Below, piece by piece: positions 185 to 5,863 of a stretch of DNA of 9,541 bases (position 1 is the stretch's first letter; each line of letters starts with the position of its first letter). Position numbers and translations under genes: made by a program. Source of the stretch: a virus (Duplodnaviria; Heunggongvirae; Uroviricota; Caudoviricetes); the IMG/VR virus record IMGVR_UViG_2548876863_000015. One strand, 5' to 3'. The notes under the pieces were generated by a model. That model saw nothing but the letters and a program-made list of their open reading frames with translations. It was not told the origin of the DNA and searched no databases.

Positions 185-1408
185 ATGAGCAGGGCAATTC
201 ATAGACTTAGCGACACTCTTTTACGAAAATTAAGCGGATCACCAACCACAAAAAGCACCTTTTTTAATGATGGTGGCAACCTTAGCGTAAGGCATTCAAC
301 CAATGGCCTGTTAACCTGGTATTTCACTTACAGGTCCGGAACTGGTAGGCAGATATCACCTGAACGTCTGAGGCTGGGAAATTATCCAGATTTGAGCCTG
401 AAAGCAGCCAGGGAAAAAGCGTCGCAATGTCGCGCATGGCTGGCTGAGGGGAAAAATCCGCGCTATGAACTTAATCATGCTGTACAGGACGCGTTAGCCC
501 CCGTGACGGTTAAGGAAGCGCTCACTTACTGGCTTGAATCGTACGCAAAGGAAAAGCGCACTGACTACGAATCACTGAAAAGCCGGATCAATAAACACAT
601 AATTAGCCAGATTGGAGCTATGCCACTGGAAAAATGCGAGCTACGCCACTGGCTGGCCTGTTTTGACCAGCTTGCTAAGCGTAATCCGGTATCAGCCGGA
701 TTTTTGCTACAGGTATGCAAACAGGCGCTTAAGTACTGCCGAAAACGACGATACGCAATCAGCAACGTTCTTGATGATATGGTTGTCGGTGATGTTGGGA
801 AAAAAGCAGAAATAAGCGAGCGCGTACTAACAAACAAGGAGCTTGGGGAATTACTACGCGCCCTTGATGAAAAAATTTACCCACCGTACTACAGCGCCCT
901 GATTCGCCTCCTGATTGTCTTCGGATGTCGTACCACTGAGCTAAGACGCTCTGAGGTCCAGGAATGGGATTTTAAAGAAATGCTCTGGACCGTGCCGAAA
1001 GAACACAGCAAAACGAAGGTAGCAATATTCAGGCCAATACCGGAAGCGATCTTGCCGTTTGTCATGAAGCTGGTGGAGCAGAACAGGCACACGGGCTTAT
1101 TGCTCGGAGAACTGAAAGGGCAATCATCCGTATCAGAGTACGGAAGAACGGCACACAGACGCATTAATCAAGCCCCCTGGACGTTGCACGACATCCGGCA
1201 CACGTTTACAACGATGCTGAACGATTTAGGCGTGGAACCGCATGTTGTGGAGCAGCTTACCGCGCACCAGTTGCCAGGAATGCAACGAGTCTATAATCAC
1301 TCCCGTTATCTTGATGCAAAACGTGACGCTCTTAATCTATGGGTTGAGCGCCTCGATGTGCTGGCTGGAAATCATGAAAATATTGTTATGCTGAAGGTGG
1401 CCAAATGA
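185..1408 (+). CDS. int: Tyrosine recombinase / integrase, P4-type (N-terminal arm-binding domain plus C-terminal catalytic domain)
   Basis: 407-aa ORF. N-terminus (LSD...GLLTWYFTYRSG...LGNYPDLSLKAAREKA) fits the arm-binding domain pattern of P4/CP4-57-type integrases. C-terminal part carries the catalytic Arg in TTELRRSE, the HDIRHTF (H-x-x-R) box and a terminal Tyr region (VYNHSRYLD). Weak SD. Confidence 0.9.
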   Translation: MSRAIHRLSDTLLRKLSGSPTTKSTFFNDGGNLSVRHSTNGLLTWYFTYRSGTGRQISPERLRLGNYPDLSLKAAREKASQCRAWLAEGKNPRYELNHAVQDALAPVTVKEALTYWLESYAKEKRTDYESLKSRINKHIISQIGAMPLEKCELRHWLACFDQLAKRNPVSAGFLLQVCKQALKYCRKRRYAISNVLDDMVVGDVGKKAEISERVLTNKELGELLRALDEKIYPPYYSALIRLLIVFGCRTTELRRSEVQEWDFKEMLWTVPKEHSKTKVAIFRPIPEAILPFVMKLVEQNRHTGLLLGELKGQSSVSEYGRTAHRRINQAPWTLHDIRHTFTTMLNDLGVEPHVVEQLTAHQLPGMQRVYNHSRYLDAKRDALNLWVERLDVLAGNHENIVMLKVAK

Positions 1409-2269: not shown

Positions 2270-2494
2270 ATGAATCAAAATACACAATTTCAATCACTAT
2301 CAGATCGCGTAATCCGTGAGGATGAATGCCGTAAGTTAACAGGAGTGTGCCGCACTACACGCTACGAACTGGAGAAAAAAGGGAATTTCCCGTCACGCCG
2401 TAATCTGGGTGGTCGTTCAGTAGGTTGGCTGCTTTCCGAGGTTATGGAATGGGTTAAAAGCCGGGATCGTATTAATTCAGGTAAGGCAGCGTAG
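2270..2494 (+). CDS. alpA: AlpA-family transcriptional regulator / excisionase-like HTH protein
   Basis: 74-aa ORF. Motif ...CRKLTGVCRTTRYELEKKGNFPSRRNLGGRSVGWLLSEVMEWVKSR matches the AlpA / phage-regulatory HTH family pattern (L-TG-S--T-Y-----G-FP----LG-R-V-W--SEV--W). Position immediately downstream of int is typical for Gram-negative PICIs and P4-like islands. Confidence 0.8.
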   Translation: MNQNTQFQSLSDRVIREDECRKLTGVCRTTRYELEKKGNFPSRRNLGGRSVGWLLSEVMEWVKSRDRINSGKAA

Positions 2495-2510: not shown

Positions 2511-2540
2511 ATAAAACAAAGGCGACCTGTGGCGGTCGCC
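2511..2540 (-). terminator. Candidate rho-independent terminator for the minus-strand regulator gene
   Basis: 7-bp stem GGCGACC (2521-2527) / GGTCGCC (2534-2540), 6-nt loop. On the minus strand it is followed by TTTGTTTTAT (complement of 2511-2520). On the plus strand it is not followed by a U-tract. Confidence 0.45.
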
Positions 2541-2628: not shown

Positions 2629-2808
2629 CTATTCCTGCTCTTTGGCCTTGCGGCGCTGGCGGCGTTTGATTTCGCCGCGCATGGCTGCGTTTATAAACTG
2701 CCCCGTGCTTTCACCTTCTTCTTTCACGTTCTCCATGCCTTCAATAATTTCATGGGCAATACGTGCAGTTACAGATTGTGATTTTGCATTCTTTGGACCC
2801 GTTGCCAT
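2629..2808 (-). CDS. Small DNA-binding protein, ribbon-helix-helix-like (59 aa); candidate repressor
   Basis: Preferred start is the ATG at 2808-2806 (MATGPKNAKSQSVTARIAHEIIEGMENVKEEGESTGQFINAAMRGEIKRRQRRKAKEQE), preceded by a GAGGGG SD 6 nt upstream. The track start at 2847 is a GTG with no SD. SVTARI then two helices fits an RHH (Arc/CopG-like) layout by eye. Divergent from an operator-rich promoter region. Confidence 0.55.
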   Translation of the reverse strand: MATGPKNAKSQSVTARIAHEIIEGMENVKEEGESTGQFINAAMRGEIKRRQRRKAKEQE

Positions 2809-2828
2809 GTTTAACCCCTCATGTTTTT

Positions 2829-2912
2829 GGTGTAAGACAATATACACGAAAAAAAAATATTTTGAAGGGTTGACGTGTAAGACACCGTTATTTTACATTG
2901 TGTCTTACACCT
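2829..2912. promoter_or_regulatory. Divergent promoter region with three copies of the operator-like motif GTGTAAGACA(C)
   Basis: GTGTAAGACA at 2830-2839; GTGTAAGACAC at 2875-2885; inverted copy GTGTCTTACAC at 2900-2910. Plus-strand sigma70-like promoter TTGACG (2870-2875), 18-bp spacer, TACATT (2894-2899), with operators overlapping the -35 and following the -10. Minus-strand -10 TATATT (complement of 2839-2844) abuts the first operator. A-tract at 2850-2864 between the two promoters. Confidence 0.55.
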
Positions 2913-3007
2913 TGTTGATGCAAGGTACAGAAAAGACGAAACCCGGCAGTGCGTCAACACTAACCGGGCTTCTAACCACCAACGATAGCAACAGTATCGA
3001 GGTAGCT

Positions 3008-3211
3008 ATGTTAAATCATACCACACACCCGCAAGGGCGGGACTCGCACAACCTGAATAAATACATCTGGCGTTTTCTGGCCCTGAGTGCCGGAGAATCT
3101 CAAATCATCCACGTAACCGCCTGGACGGAACGCGAAGCGCGTAGCCGTTGCCCGTCAGGTTGTGTTGCTGTATTTGTCGCCCGTATTCGTCAGGGGGTGT
3201 GCCGTGCTTAA
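3008..3211 (+). CDS. Small conserved protein (67 aa), possibly Icd/Ash-like as seen in P4-family islands
   Basis: ATG at 3008 with GAGGT 4 nt upstream. MLNHTTHPQGRDSHNLNKYIWRFLALSAGESQIIHVTAWTEREARSRCPSGCVAVFVARIRQGVCRA. The WRFLAL ... EREAR ... VFVARI pattern resembles, from memory, small Icd-like/Ash-family proteins of enterobacterial P4-like prophages; not verified. The upstream extension to 2504 in the ORF track is rejected. Confidence 0.5.
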   Translation: MLNHTTHPQGRDSHNLNKYIWRFLALSAGESQIIHVTAWTEREARSRCPSGCVAVFVARIRQGVCRA

Positions 3212-3818: not shown

Positions 3819-4118
3819 ATGAAACTTAAATATTCTGGCTTAACTGCCAGCGGCAAAACTCGCACTAAATTCATGTGCGGGGATATTTACCGCGATAAGT
3901 ACGGCGGCACGGTAATGATTAAGGGCGTGGAGGAACGGCGCGTAACTTACCGCCGTGAAGGCTACGAATATGATTGCGTTATGCCTGTTTATCAGTTCAA
4001 CCGTGATTTTTCTCTGGTACAGGCAGCGCCCCGCAGTAAGCCAACCAGCAGGGAGAAAGCACGCGCCAATATTCAGGAAATAAAAAAGATGCTTAACGTA
4101 TTCAGGGGTAAAAAATGA
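3819..4118 (+). CDS. Hypothetical small basic protein (99 aa), translationally coupled to the replication gene
   Basis: ATG at 3819 with GGAGA SD 9 nt upstream; stop overlaps the pri-rep start (ATGA at 4115-4118). No domain recognised. Confidence 0.6.
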   Translation: MKLKYSGLTASGKTRTKFMCGDIYRDKYGGTVMIKGVEERRVTYRREGYEYDCVMPVYQFNRDFSLVQAAPRSKPTSREKARANIQEIKKMLNVFRGKK

Positions 4119-5863
4119 AACTGGCACCGAACGTAAAAAAACAGCCACGCGGAATAAAACACAAAGACACAGAGGTGATTATTTTCGCGGGTAGTGATGC
4201 GTGGGCACATGCAAAACAGTGGCAGGAGCAGGACGGCCCCGCATCCGGCGATAATGTGCCTCCTGTGTGGCTTGGGCCAAATCAGCTTGCCGAACTTTAT
4301 GCACTGCAAATTGTTCCTGATGGAAAAAAACGCGTAAGGCTGTACCAGGCAGGAGAACTGGACTTGGTGGAGACCAAAAAGATTGGTCAGAAGCTGGCGG
4401 CGGCAGGCGTACAGGATGCAAAATTTTACCCCGAAGGAATGCACGGTCAGAAGTGTGAAAACTGGCGGCGCTATCTGAATGCTGAGCGTGAAAATATTGC
4501 CGCAGGGCTTACCATGCCGGAGCAGAAAAATACGCAACTGGCACAAATGGCAGACAGTGAGCGCGCCCAGCTGCTTGCCGATCGCTTTGATGGCGTTTGC
4601 GTACATCCTGAAAGTGAAATCGTTCACGTATGGCGCGGCGGGGTATGGTGTCCGGTCAGCACAATGGAACTTAGCCGCGAAATGGTGGCGATCTATTCAG
4701 AGCACAGGGCCACTTTCAGCAAACGCGTGATCAATAACGCCGTTGAAGCGTTAAAAGTTATTGCCGAACCAATGGGGGAGCCGTCCGGCGATTTGCTGCC
4801 GTTCGCCAATGGTGCACTTGACCTGAAAACGGGGGAATTTTCCCCGCACACGCCGGAGAACTGGATCACCACGCACAACGGCATTGAGTACACGCCACCA
4901 GCACCAGGGGAGAACATTCGCGACAACGCGCCAAACTTTCATAAATGGCTTGAGCACGCAGCCGGAAAAGACCCGCGCAAGATGATGCGTATATGTGCCG
5001 CGCTGTACATGATTATGGCGAACCGGTACGACTGGCAGATGTTTATTGAGGCCACCGGAGACGGCGGGAGCGGTAAAAGTACATTCACACACATAGCCAG
5101 CCTTCTGGCAGGGAAACAGAACACCGTAAGCGCGGAGATGACATCACTCGATGATGCAGGAGGGCGCGCGCAGGTTGTCGGGAGTCGTCTTATCGTCCTG
5201 GCTGACCAGCCGAAATATACAGGCGAAGGAACGGGCATCAAGAAAATCACGGGCGGCGACCCCGTGGAAATTAACCCGAAATATGAAAAGCGTTTCACGG
5301 CGGTAATCAGGGCGGTGGTGCTGGCGACCAACAACAACCCGATGATATTCACCGAACGGGCCGGAGGCGTGGCACGTCGTCGGGTTATTTTTCGCTTTGA
5401 CAATATCGTTAGCGAGGCAGAAAAGGACAAGGATTTGCCGGAGAAGGTCGCGGCTGAAATCCCTGTGATTATCCGCCGCTTGCTGGCTAATTTTGCTGAC
5501 CCTGAAAAGGCACGGGCTTTATTACTGGAACAGCGCGACGGTGATGAAGCACTGGCGATAAAGCAACAGACAGATCCGGTTATTGAGTTTTGCCAGTTCC
5601 TGAATTTTCTGGAGGAAGCGCGCGGCCTGATGATGGGTGGCGGTGGCGATTCCGTGAAGTACACGACCAGAAACAGCCTTTACCGCGTCTATCTGGCGTT
5701 TATGGCATACGCAGGAAGAAGCAAGCCGCTAAACGTGGCTGATTTCAGCAAGGCCATGAAGCCAGCGGCGAAAGTTTACGGACATGAATATATTACGCGA
5801 AAAGTTAAGGGAGTAACGCAGACCAACGCAATTACAACGGATGATTGTGACGCGTTTTTATAA
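4115..5863 (+). CDS. Replication initiator: primase-associated / D5-like SF3 helicase (P4 alpha-like primase-helicase C-terminal region)
   Basis: 582-aa ORF with SD AGGGG 6 nt upstream. Walker A GDGGSGKST; downstream Walker B-like run RLIVLADQP; LATNNNP and RRRVIFRFDN motifs typical of the phage/plasmid primase P4-family C-terminal NTPase domain; D5-N-like segment before the P-loop. Followed immediately by an iteron array. Confidence 0.9.
   Translation: MKLAPNVKKQPRGIKHKDTEVIIFAGSDAWAHAKQWQEQDGPASGDNVPPVWLGPNQLAELYALQIVPDGKKRVRLYQAGELDLVETKKIGQKLAAAGVQDAKFYPEGMHGQKCENWRRYLNAERENIAAGLTMPEQKNTQLAQMADSERAQLLADRFDGVCVHPESEIVHVWRGGVWCPVSTMELSREMVAIYSEHRATFSKRVINNAVEALKVIAEPMGEPSGDLLPFANGALDLKTGEFSPHTPENWITTHNGIEYTPPAPGENIRDNAPNFHKWLEHAAGKDPRKMMRICAALYMIMANRYDWQMFIEATGDGGSGKSTFTHIASLLAGKQNTVSAEMTSLDDAGGRAQVVGSRLIVLADQPKYTGEGTGIKKITGGDPVEINPKYEKRFTAVIRAVVLATNNNPMIFTERAGGVARRRVIFRFDNIVSEAEKDKDLPEKVAAEIPVIIRRLLANFADPEKARALLLEQRDGDEALAIKQQTDPVIEFCQFLNFLEEARGLMMGGGGDSVKYTTRNSLYRVYLAFMAYAGRSKPLNVADFSKAMKPAAKVYGHEYITRKVKGVTQTNAITTDDCDAFL

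Follow-up and report, generated by a model that had tools for sequence, protein, structure and literature searches.

This locus raises the question of how the rightward operon of a phage satellite, which leads to a replication gene, is controlled. It lies in the IMG/VR record IMGVR_UViG_2548876863_000015, a stretch of 9,541 nucleotides (nt) that was analyzed at its full length and is called the window in the following. The window represents a phage satellite of the type of the Gram-negative phage-inducible chromosomal islands (PICIs), and in its control region a small gene on the minus strand, ylcI, faces the rightward operon. The original prediction for this region had proposed that the small gene encodes a ribbon-helix-helix (RHH)-like repressor, that three copies of one motif serve as its operators, and that the protein is the master repressor of the island, analogous to Stl of the Staphylococcus aureus pathogenicity islands (SaPIs), with an inducer encoded by a helper phage. 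Comparison with related loci gives good support to an autoregulated RHH repressor-operator switch formed by the YlcI protein of 59 amino acids (aa) and the three sites, and we regard this reading as quite probable.

The motif GTGTAAGACA is present in three exact copies (2830-2839 and 2875-2884 on the plus strand, 2901-2910 on the minus strand), which all lie between the small gene and the rightward operon, and there is no fourth copy in the 9541 bp. By chance a mean of 0.01 copies would be expected, and none of 200 dinucleotide-preserving shuffles reached three. The three putative operators, named O1 to O3 (Table 1), are located at two candidate promoters, a leftward one (P_L) in front of ylcI and a rightward one (P_R) in front of the operon. 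As 11-mers, O2 and O3 are perfect inverted copies of each other, separated by 14 nt, and O1 departs from O2 in the last base. The arrangement is of the RHH type, i.e., repeated putative sites overlap the promoters that would be regulated, including that of the repressor gene itself. The copy that had been predicted to abut the leftward -10 region, O1, overlaps this region and the start site of P_L, and the predicted autoregulation would follow from this geometry. The two further copies had been predicted to be inverted and to bracket the -35 and the -10 region of the rightward promoter. The inversion was correct, but the bracketing was slightly off, because O2 and O3 flank the -10 region.

Related loci were collected by a protein search of contigs with one genome per species, which yielded 68 loci, and examples from Escherichia coli were added. 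The layout was constant with single-base precision in 69 loci, which came from Escherichia, Citrobacter-like genera, Serratia, Yersinia, Pectobacterium, Dickeya, Xenorhabdus, Proteus, Morganella, and Providencia; nearly all of the collected loci followed it. In E. coli, roughly 1,800 genomes have the module. O1 is found at an offset of 24 and O2 at an offset of 69 from the ylcI start codon, and the distance between the two was 45 bp in 56 of 65 loci. O3 is located at or after the -10 region of P_R, at a distance of 22, 23, 25 or 35 bp from O2 and in either orientation. The -10 hexamer of P_L overlaps the end of O1; among 60 distinct related intergenic regions, 49 had it as TATACT with an unchanged offset. 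Of 68 distinct regions, 60 had the -35 hexamer of P_R (TTGAnn) at offset 64, counted from the start of ylcI, and an A/T-rich stretch separates the leftward -10 from the rightward -35 region. The last triplet of O1 was CAG, not CAC, in 51 of 65 loci, because O1 shares bases with the -10 region of P_L, and therefore O1 is probably the weaker site. Absence of the motif from related islands had been named as an argument that would speak against the switch; however, corresponding sites are present in the 69 loci, and it is the core of the motif that is island-specific. When flanks of 3 kb were considered, alpA adjoined ylcI in 45 of 70 loci, and the integrase gene int was found in 41 of 70.

Across the loci the sites have the form GTG-N5-CAC, with nearly constant flanks and five central bases (N5) that vary. 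The N5 core is TAAGA in the window, and GGCCA, TATTT, GCTGA, CGATT, GTGTT, GAGTC, GGTGC, TCCGA, and others were found elsewhere, so that the count is 20 N5 cores in 15 classes. The three cores of one island differ by a mean of 0.41 positions; the cores of islands with different YlcI beta-strands differ by 3.49 positions, which is near random. While the cores change, the GTG/CAC flanks, the -10 region of P_L, and the -35 region of P_R stay constant. Three separate sites thus change in concert at unchanged promoter hexamers, and therefore they should have a trans-acting reader with island-specific specificity. This reader is most likely YlcI. The YlcI positions most informative on the operator class were position 14 (0.78 of the class entropy) and position 12 (0.65), and both alternate with the invariant Arg16 (R16); the side of an RHH ribbon that faces the DNA would show such a pattern. 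Together with the fixed site positions and the concerted change, this covariation with the beta-strand argues for the motifs as operators of YlcI, and the predicted control of the operon that leads to the replication gene would follow from the geometry.

The match between operators and protein was also found in the reverse direction, with searches that used only DNA. The TAAGA operator pair was detected in 28 viral contigs; in 26 of them ylcI began at a distance of exactly 69 nt, and the strand of all 26 proteins was QS[V/L]TARI. The GGCCA pair was detected in 14 contigs; ylcI was present in 12 of them, and in all 12 cases the strand was QALKARV. Taken together, the 38 ylcI genes found in these searches all encoded the expected protein class (38/38), and in at least two of the four contigs without ylcI the match was near the contig end. 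Another class was seen in E. coli NCTC86 (locus L075, 2282-2570), the protein of which has the strand QTVAARV. Three GTGTT(C/T)AACAC sites surround P_R in this locus, of which one precedes the -35 region, whereas at the position of O1 the sequence is degenerate.

The small gene is a conserved, real gene. The window protein was matched by the NCBIfam family NF041551 (YlcI/YnfO; DUF3950) with 64.8 bits at a cutoff of 30 (E value 5.2e-18, residues 9-50), and RefSeq annotates the same gene as YlcI/YnfO. A version of 72 aa with a GTG start, which was in the list of open reading frames (ORFs), is not the conserved form, because the homologues begin with MATG. The AlphaFold model contains a strand at about residues 11-17, helix A at 19-28, and helix B at 35-58, i.e., it has the order strand-helix-helix, and the best structural matches include the DNA-binding domains of the RHH antitoxins CopA_SO, MazE6, HicB, TacA, and VapB12. 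The predicted fold is thus that of the RHH (Arc/MetJ/CopG) proteins, as the original prediction had proposed, and indirect support for the ribbon comes from the alternation of residues 12, 14 and 16 along the strand. The C-terminal segment EIKRRQR is, as a rule, invariant; in L075 it is altered to EVEYRQR. PHROGs places YlcI in two families of unknown function. A comparison of the YlcI sequence profile with the PDB gave no meaningful relative, and a tblastn search of 50,697 phage records gave no match, so that the subfamily is unseen among deposited phages. A functional paper on YlcI, YnfO or DUF3950 was not found in the openly searchable literature.

From these results the following mode of action can be proposed. 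YlcI would bind its 11-bp GTG-N5-CAC operators as an RHH repressor, probably with one dimer per site, judging from the size of the sites and from omega-type RHH proteins. At O2 and O3 it would block transcription of the operon from the icd-like gene to the primase gene, as is implied by one site in the spacer of P_R and one over its start. At the slightly weaker O1 it would exert negative autoregulation, as is implied by a site over the -10 region and the start of its own promoter. Because O1 would be the weaker site, the repressor would close P_R first and only then restrict its own production. The specificity would reside in residues 12 and 14 of the beta-strand, adjacent to the invariant Arg16, and a swap S12A/T14K would be expected to shift it from GTGTAAGACAC towards GTGGGCCACAC. 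The two residues and the N5 core would have diversified jointly, much like immunity types, into at least 15 classes in satellites of Enterobacterales. Transcripts that escape from P_R would meet, as a second lock, a SymR-like antisense RNA lying over the ribosome-binding site of the first ORF. The override would probably come from upstream and not from an anti-repressor. A terminator scan detected no terminator-like site on the plus strand between alpA and the rightward operon, and thus transcripts of alpA, activated by AlpA, would cross ylcI in the antisense direction and continue into the operon. This route can be likened to that of P4, where transcription from a late promoter upstream passes the immunity region and proceeds towards the primase gene (PMC10111431).

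Several points weigh against this switch. The evidence for it is entirely sequence-based. The spacing between O2 and O3 and the orientation of O3 vary, and therefore a single cooperative geometry cannot be proposed. In addition, ylcI and the sites are no more than about 150 bp apart and are passed on as a block, so that their association alone could reflect linkage or hitch-hiking. Stronger arguments for a function are that the sites change in concert and that the signal is concentrated at positions 12 and 14. In Pfam, no family matched YlcI with an E value up to 0.1, and the curated RHH profile remained unmatched. The structural model is a single chain, in which the beta-ribbon itself is not visible. 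Overexpression of AlpA alone, in the absence of a phage, leads to excision and replication of EcCICFT073 (PMC6092414). This island has the same module, and therefore YlcI is not a sufficient lock. Lastly, islands of the EcCIEDL933 type have neither ylcI nor P_R. In an island of this type from E. coli O157:H7, a cf-PICI (locus L072, 3932-5144), alpA is followed by a plus-strand ORF of 247 aa that extends up to the Icd-like gene, and ylcI is missing. The repressor module is therefore optional among these satellites.

The original prediction had proposed the repressor switch in the control region, but had missed the RNA-based second lock in the leader. The 5' region and a hairpin of the predicted cis-antisense RNA (Table 1) are complementary to the Shine-Dalgarno sequence and the start of the first rightward ORF, and the RNA ends in a GC-rich terminator hairpin (2972..2938) that is followed by a U-run. 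The Rfam model symR (RF01809) gave a full-length match from 3007 to 2935 on the minus strand with 33.8 bits, which falls short of the gathering score of 61. The match recurred at this place in 5 of 10 relatives that were scanned, with 35.5-45.4 bits, also below 61. With RNAalifold, the antisense strand folded into two hairpins (-31.5 kcal/mol, 24 pairs), compared to -2.8 kcal/mol and 6 pairs for the sense strand, and many G-U pairs of the antisense structure are A-C mismatches on the opposite strand. In an alignment of 43 sequences, compensatory changes occurred in 16 of 23 pairs and 96.5% of the cells could pair; none of 500 shuffles was as good, and slid controls paired at 31-46%. In loci that belong to three different N-terminal coding classes, a TAnnnT hexamer precedes the 5' end of the RNA by 7 nt. 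A sense-strand immunity RNA of the C4/CI type was rejected as a candidate for the leader; the Rfam models for C4 and isrK were unmatched, and the sense strand is nearly without conserved structure.

Within E. coli, the leader between O3 and the start of the Icd-like gene is more widely conserved than ylcI. The symE leader and the symR gene of E. coli K-12 align with these leaders, and an identical 12-mer, GTGCGCCAACAC, is shared by K-12 with the loci L003 and L069, which suggests that the K-12 symE/symR region and the satellite leaders share an origin. A chromosomal type I antitoxin RNA would thereby be linked to satellite control regions. The region upstream of symE aligns with nothing in these loci and is unrelated to O2 and O3; it holds a LexA box. 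At the other end of the leader, an inverted repeat follows immediately after O3 in the window. In many related loci a CTTGA..TCAAG repeat is found at the same place, and it is absent where the distance between O2 and O3 is 35 bp. The repeat may represent a hairpin at the 5' end of the mRNA or the site of another protein.

The literature on Gram-negative PICIs bears on the question whether YlcI could be more than a local repressor. Fillol-Salom et al., who defined the Gram-negative PICIs, called it unclear whether a global repressor exists in these islands, and described AlpA, an activator, as the known regulator (PMC6092414). In their model island EcCICFT073, ylcI (C_RS30120) is divergent from the Icd-like gene. 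Its locus tag is far above those of the neighbors (C_RS069xx), which suggests that it was annotated later. The EcCICFT073 protein (WP_000190587.1) is identical to that of locus L002, the operators of which are of the GGCCA type. It is conceivable, but rather doubtful, that YlcI is the sought repressor that keeps Gram-negative PICIs, including EcCICFT073, silent, and that its loss, caused by AlpA-driven convergent transcription or by a helper-phage factor, would be the real induction event. If so, the operator and beta-strand classes, at least 15 in number, would be immunity groups that decide which satellites coexist or cross-repress, and they would represent a natural RHH-DNA recognition code centered on two residues.

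Less likely still, i.e., possible but disfavored, is the reading that takes up the original prediction, in which YlcI is a true master repressor in the sense of Stl and alone keeps the island silent, a protein of the helper phage inactivates it, and AlpA acts downstream or in parallel. It would fit that ylcI lies in the control region from which the replication operon diverges, the invariant EIKRRQR could be a conserved docking surface, and, apart from the unclear global repressor, the phage inducer of alpA has been described as unidentified (PMC6092414). However, the phage-free induction of the module-bearing EcCICFT073 by AlpA argues against a single master lock, and the published route of induction is AlpA-mediated, with helper phages raising the transcription of alpA (PMC6092414), instead of a phage-encoded inducer of the repressor. 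Islands such as EcCIEDL933 are devoid of ylcI and are still AlpA-dependent and phage-induced. YlcI has nothing beyond the RHH core, and it is unlike Stl in size, in fold, and in its orientation relative to int. A Stl-like anti-repressor mechanism is not needed. The cf-PICI preprint, the paper on helper-embedded PICIs, and the EcCIMP1 paper do not mention such a repressor, and no paper that links PICIs with an RHH protein was found in the openly searchable (non-subscription) literature. The 'putative repressor' of EcCIMP1 was considered as a counterpart of YlcI and was rejected, because it is a PerC-family protein.

It is very improbable that another factor (AlpA, the Icd-like protein, or a host protein) binds the motifs and that YlcI has an unrelated role, as it might have in lambdoid prophages, where it lies beside cos and the gene for the small terminase subunit. 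The name-giving ylcI of the K-12 prophage DLP12 (locus L073, 4252-4446, minus strand) is indeed divergent from nohD and located beside cos, and a triple operator upstream of it was not apparent on reading the sequence, but a repeat scan was not made, and this case is uninformative on function; the gene resembles the most distant satellite homologues (loci L069 and L070). PHROGs calls the family of the Icd-like protein 'transcriptional repressor', although the model of this protein has no recognizable DNA-binding fold. Against AlpA as the reader stands that the operator class is independent of it: In the loci L005-L007 AlpA is only 31-41% identical to that of the window, yet the operators are the same, whereas in L002, L015, and L068 AlpA is 61-67% identical, yet the operators are different. 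The class is also independent of the first rightward gene, as L003 has a different first ORF and identical operators. In contrast, it is predicted by the YlcI residues 12 and 14, the DNA-only searches led to the expected YlcI class throughout, and at least 15 island-specific cores could not be explained by a host factor.

Marginally less probable again is an addiction module, in which YlcI would be the autoregulating, antitoxin-like half and the toxic Icd-like protein its partner. The antitoxins among the structural matches, the family name of the Icd-like protein (cell-division inhibitor), and the resemblance of the antisense RNA to the type I antitoxin SymR would agree with this. However, type II RHH antitoxins have a co-transcribed toxin and a toxin-binding C-terminal region, whereas ylcI is monocistronic with its own terminator, has no adjacent ORF on the same strand in the window, and is divergent from the putative toxin gene. 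YlcI has no toxin-neutralizing C-terminal domain, and in many loci the same YlcI and operators are combined with a different first ORF. That the repeats have arisen by chance, or are replication, packaging or att-type sites without a role in transcription, can practically be dismissed: PICI origins do carry iterons (PMC6092414), but the mapped origins colocalize with replication genes (Primase, SSB, DUF5906) and not with this region (PMC10111431), only 0.01 copies would be expected by chance, and the sites are locked to promoter hexamers in 69 loci.

The autoregulated YlcI switch is embedded in an island that corresponds to the EcCICFT073-type Gram-negative PICIs, with int, alpA, a replication gene, packaging genes, a size of about 10 kb, and a non-prophage site (Table 1). 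A 98.8% identical island is integrated between cspD/yljB and clpS in several genomes of Shiga toxin-producing E. coli (O157:H7, O103:H2, and O121). In the rightward operon, several small plus-strand ORFs follow the Icd-like gene. The labels of the Icd-like protein disagree, i.e., NCBIfam describes a host cell-division inhibitor, and PHROGs (6196 and 1743) a 'transcriptional repressor'. The AlphaFold2 model has the order beta-beta-alpha-beta with a mean confidence (pLDDT) of 76.8, and its comparison with known structures gave uninformative matches and confirmed neither label. RgdR (Flockhart 2012), which originates from a prophage and regulates type III secretion and motility of enterohaemorrhagic E. 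coli (PMC3378721), was considered as the identity of the small regulator and was rejected, because its counterpart in the window is the DUF4222 protein upstream of the primase. This protein has CGD at residues 20-22, compared to the RGD motif named in PMC3378721. Neither Pfam nor NCBIfam nor PHROGs gave a match for the ORF of 257 aa downstream of int, which occupies a spot where satellites often have accessory genes. The Rfam int-alpA RNA motif (RF02996) was found between int and alpA with 49-63 bits in the loci L010, L044, L055, L057, and L063, and it was unmatched in the window, where the extra ORF parts int from alpA.

Table 1. Features of the control region and the island, with positions in the window
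Feature	Position	Strand	Characteristics and basis
P4-type integrase gene (int)	185-1408	+	domain/profile searches of window ORFs
ORF of 257 aa	1405-2178	+	overlaps int stop codon
alpA	2270-2494	+	Pfam PF05930, E value 3e-16; convergent with ylcI; published activator of Gram-negative PICIs (PMC6092414)
Predicted intrinsic terminator of ylcI	2521-2540 (2540..2521)	-	terminator scan and sequence; T-run on minus strand only
ylcI-like gene, 59 aa	2629-2808	-	start ATG at 2808; GAGGGG Shine-Dalgarno sequence 6 nt upstream
O1, putative operator	2830-2840		GTGTAAGACAa; overlaps leftward -10 and start site; presumed autoregulatory
P_L, candidate leftward promoter	2839-2866	-	-35 TTCAAA 2866..2861, 16 nt spacer, -10 TATATT 2844..2839; consensus scan
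P_R, candidate rightward promoter	2870-2899	+	-35 TTGACG 2870-2875, 18 nt spacer, -10 TACATT 2894-2899; consensus scan
O2, putative operator	2875-2885		GTGTAAGACAC; within P_R spacer, from last base of -35
O3, putative operator	2900-2910		GTGTCTTACAC, inverted; directly after P_R -10, over expected start site
Inverted repeat	2909-2926		ACCTTG-TTGATG-CAAGGT; immediately after O3; sequence
SymR-like cis-antisense RNA (predicted)	2929-3007 (5' end ~3007)	-	sub-threshold match to Rfam symR and covariation
Icd-like gene, 67 aa	3008-3211	+	first of rightward operon; NCBIfam NF033153
Candidate extended -10 of antisense RNA	3015-3023	-	TGgTATGAT; inside first codons of icd-like gene; sequence
DUF4222 gene, 99 aa	3819-4118	+	just upstream of primase gene; RgdR family
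Primase/helicase gene	4115-5863	+	D5_N, DUF5906; replication gene closing the rightward operon; Pfam
TerS-like gene	7080-7568	+	profile searches
HK97-type capsid-like gene	7731-8654	+	profile searches

If the proposed switch operates as described, the YlcI module would supply the missing negative arm of Gram-negative PICI control, which is testable in the model island EcCICFT073. It would also be the first function for the YlcI/YnfO (DUF3950) family. In addition, the natural operator and protein classes, with differences mainly at two residues of the strand and in the 5-bp core, would be at hand as small repressors that are probably orthogonal to each other, and RHH-DNA recognition could be tested with them.

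Among the known systems that were compared, Stl of the SaPIs and Rpr of the Gram-positive PICIs share with YlcI the position of the gene. Stl is a helix-turn-helix repressor of roughly 250 aa. YlcI, with 59 aa and an RHH fold, is unlike Stl; it is encoded on the strand opposite to int, and the AlpA activator pathway is present beside it. As stl and rpr, ylcI is divergent from the satellite operon for excision and replication, which its product would repress, while stl is co-oriented with int and its product is inactivated by helper-phage proteins (PMC6092414). The omega repressor of pSM19035 is also an RHH protein, but it has no sequence similarity with YlcI, and it binds 7-bp heptads in contiguous arrays instead of 11-bp sites that are 22-45 bp apart. 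SymR (RF01809), an RNA of about 77 nt with two hairpins, starts beside the start codon of the opposite strand and ends in a terminator, and the window likewise has a predicted structured antisense RNA over the 5' end and the ribosome-binding site of the opposite gene. Unlike SymR, the satellite RNAs score only 34-45 bits, below the gathering score, their target is an Icd-like or another small ORF and not SymE, and YlcI operators are located upstream.

The closest system in function is immunity I (immI) of P22, and immI of P1 and P4 are next. Mnt and Arc of P22 immI are small RHH repressors, Mnt has a tetramerization tail, and the operators are single sites of 17-21 bp. P22 immI (mnt/arc/sar/ant) and the window have in common that the gene for a small RHH repressor is divergent from the operon that is, or would be, repressed, that the operators lie on the promoter, and that a small antisense RNA against the operon leader is the second control (PMC2629481). 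The differences are that a sequence relationship is not detectable, that YlcI lacks a tail of the Mnt type, and that the window has three 11-bp sites. Also, the regulated operon contains the Icd-like gene and replication genes, and neither Ant, Bro or KilAC domains nor a second RHH protein of the Arc type were found among its ORFs with Pfam, NCBIfam, and PHROGs. The antisense RNA of the window resembles SymR, and sar of P22 was not part of the comparison. P1 immI (c4 RNA-icd-ant) and P4 (CI RNA) share with the window an RNA lock in the leader and an Icd-like first gene, but C4 and CI are processed from the sense strand, whereas the structure in the window is on the opposite strand, and an RHH repressor is not present at this position in P1 and P4. 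The YlcI module is thus not a member of the P22, P1 or P4 systems, and it is best filed as a new, uncharacterized member of the RHH repressor-operator type in the control region of a widespread family of satellites.

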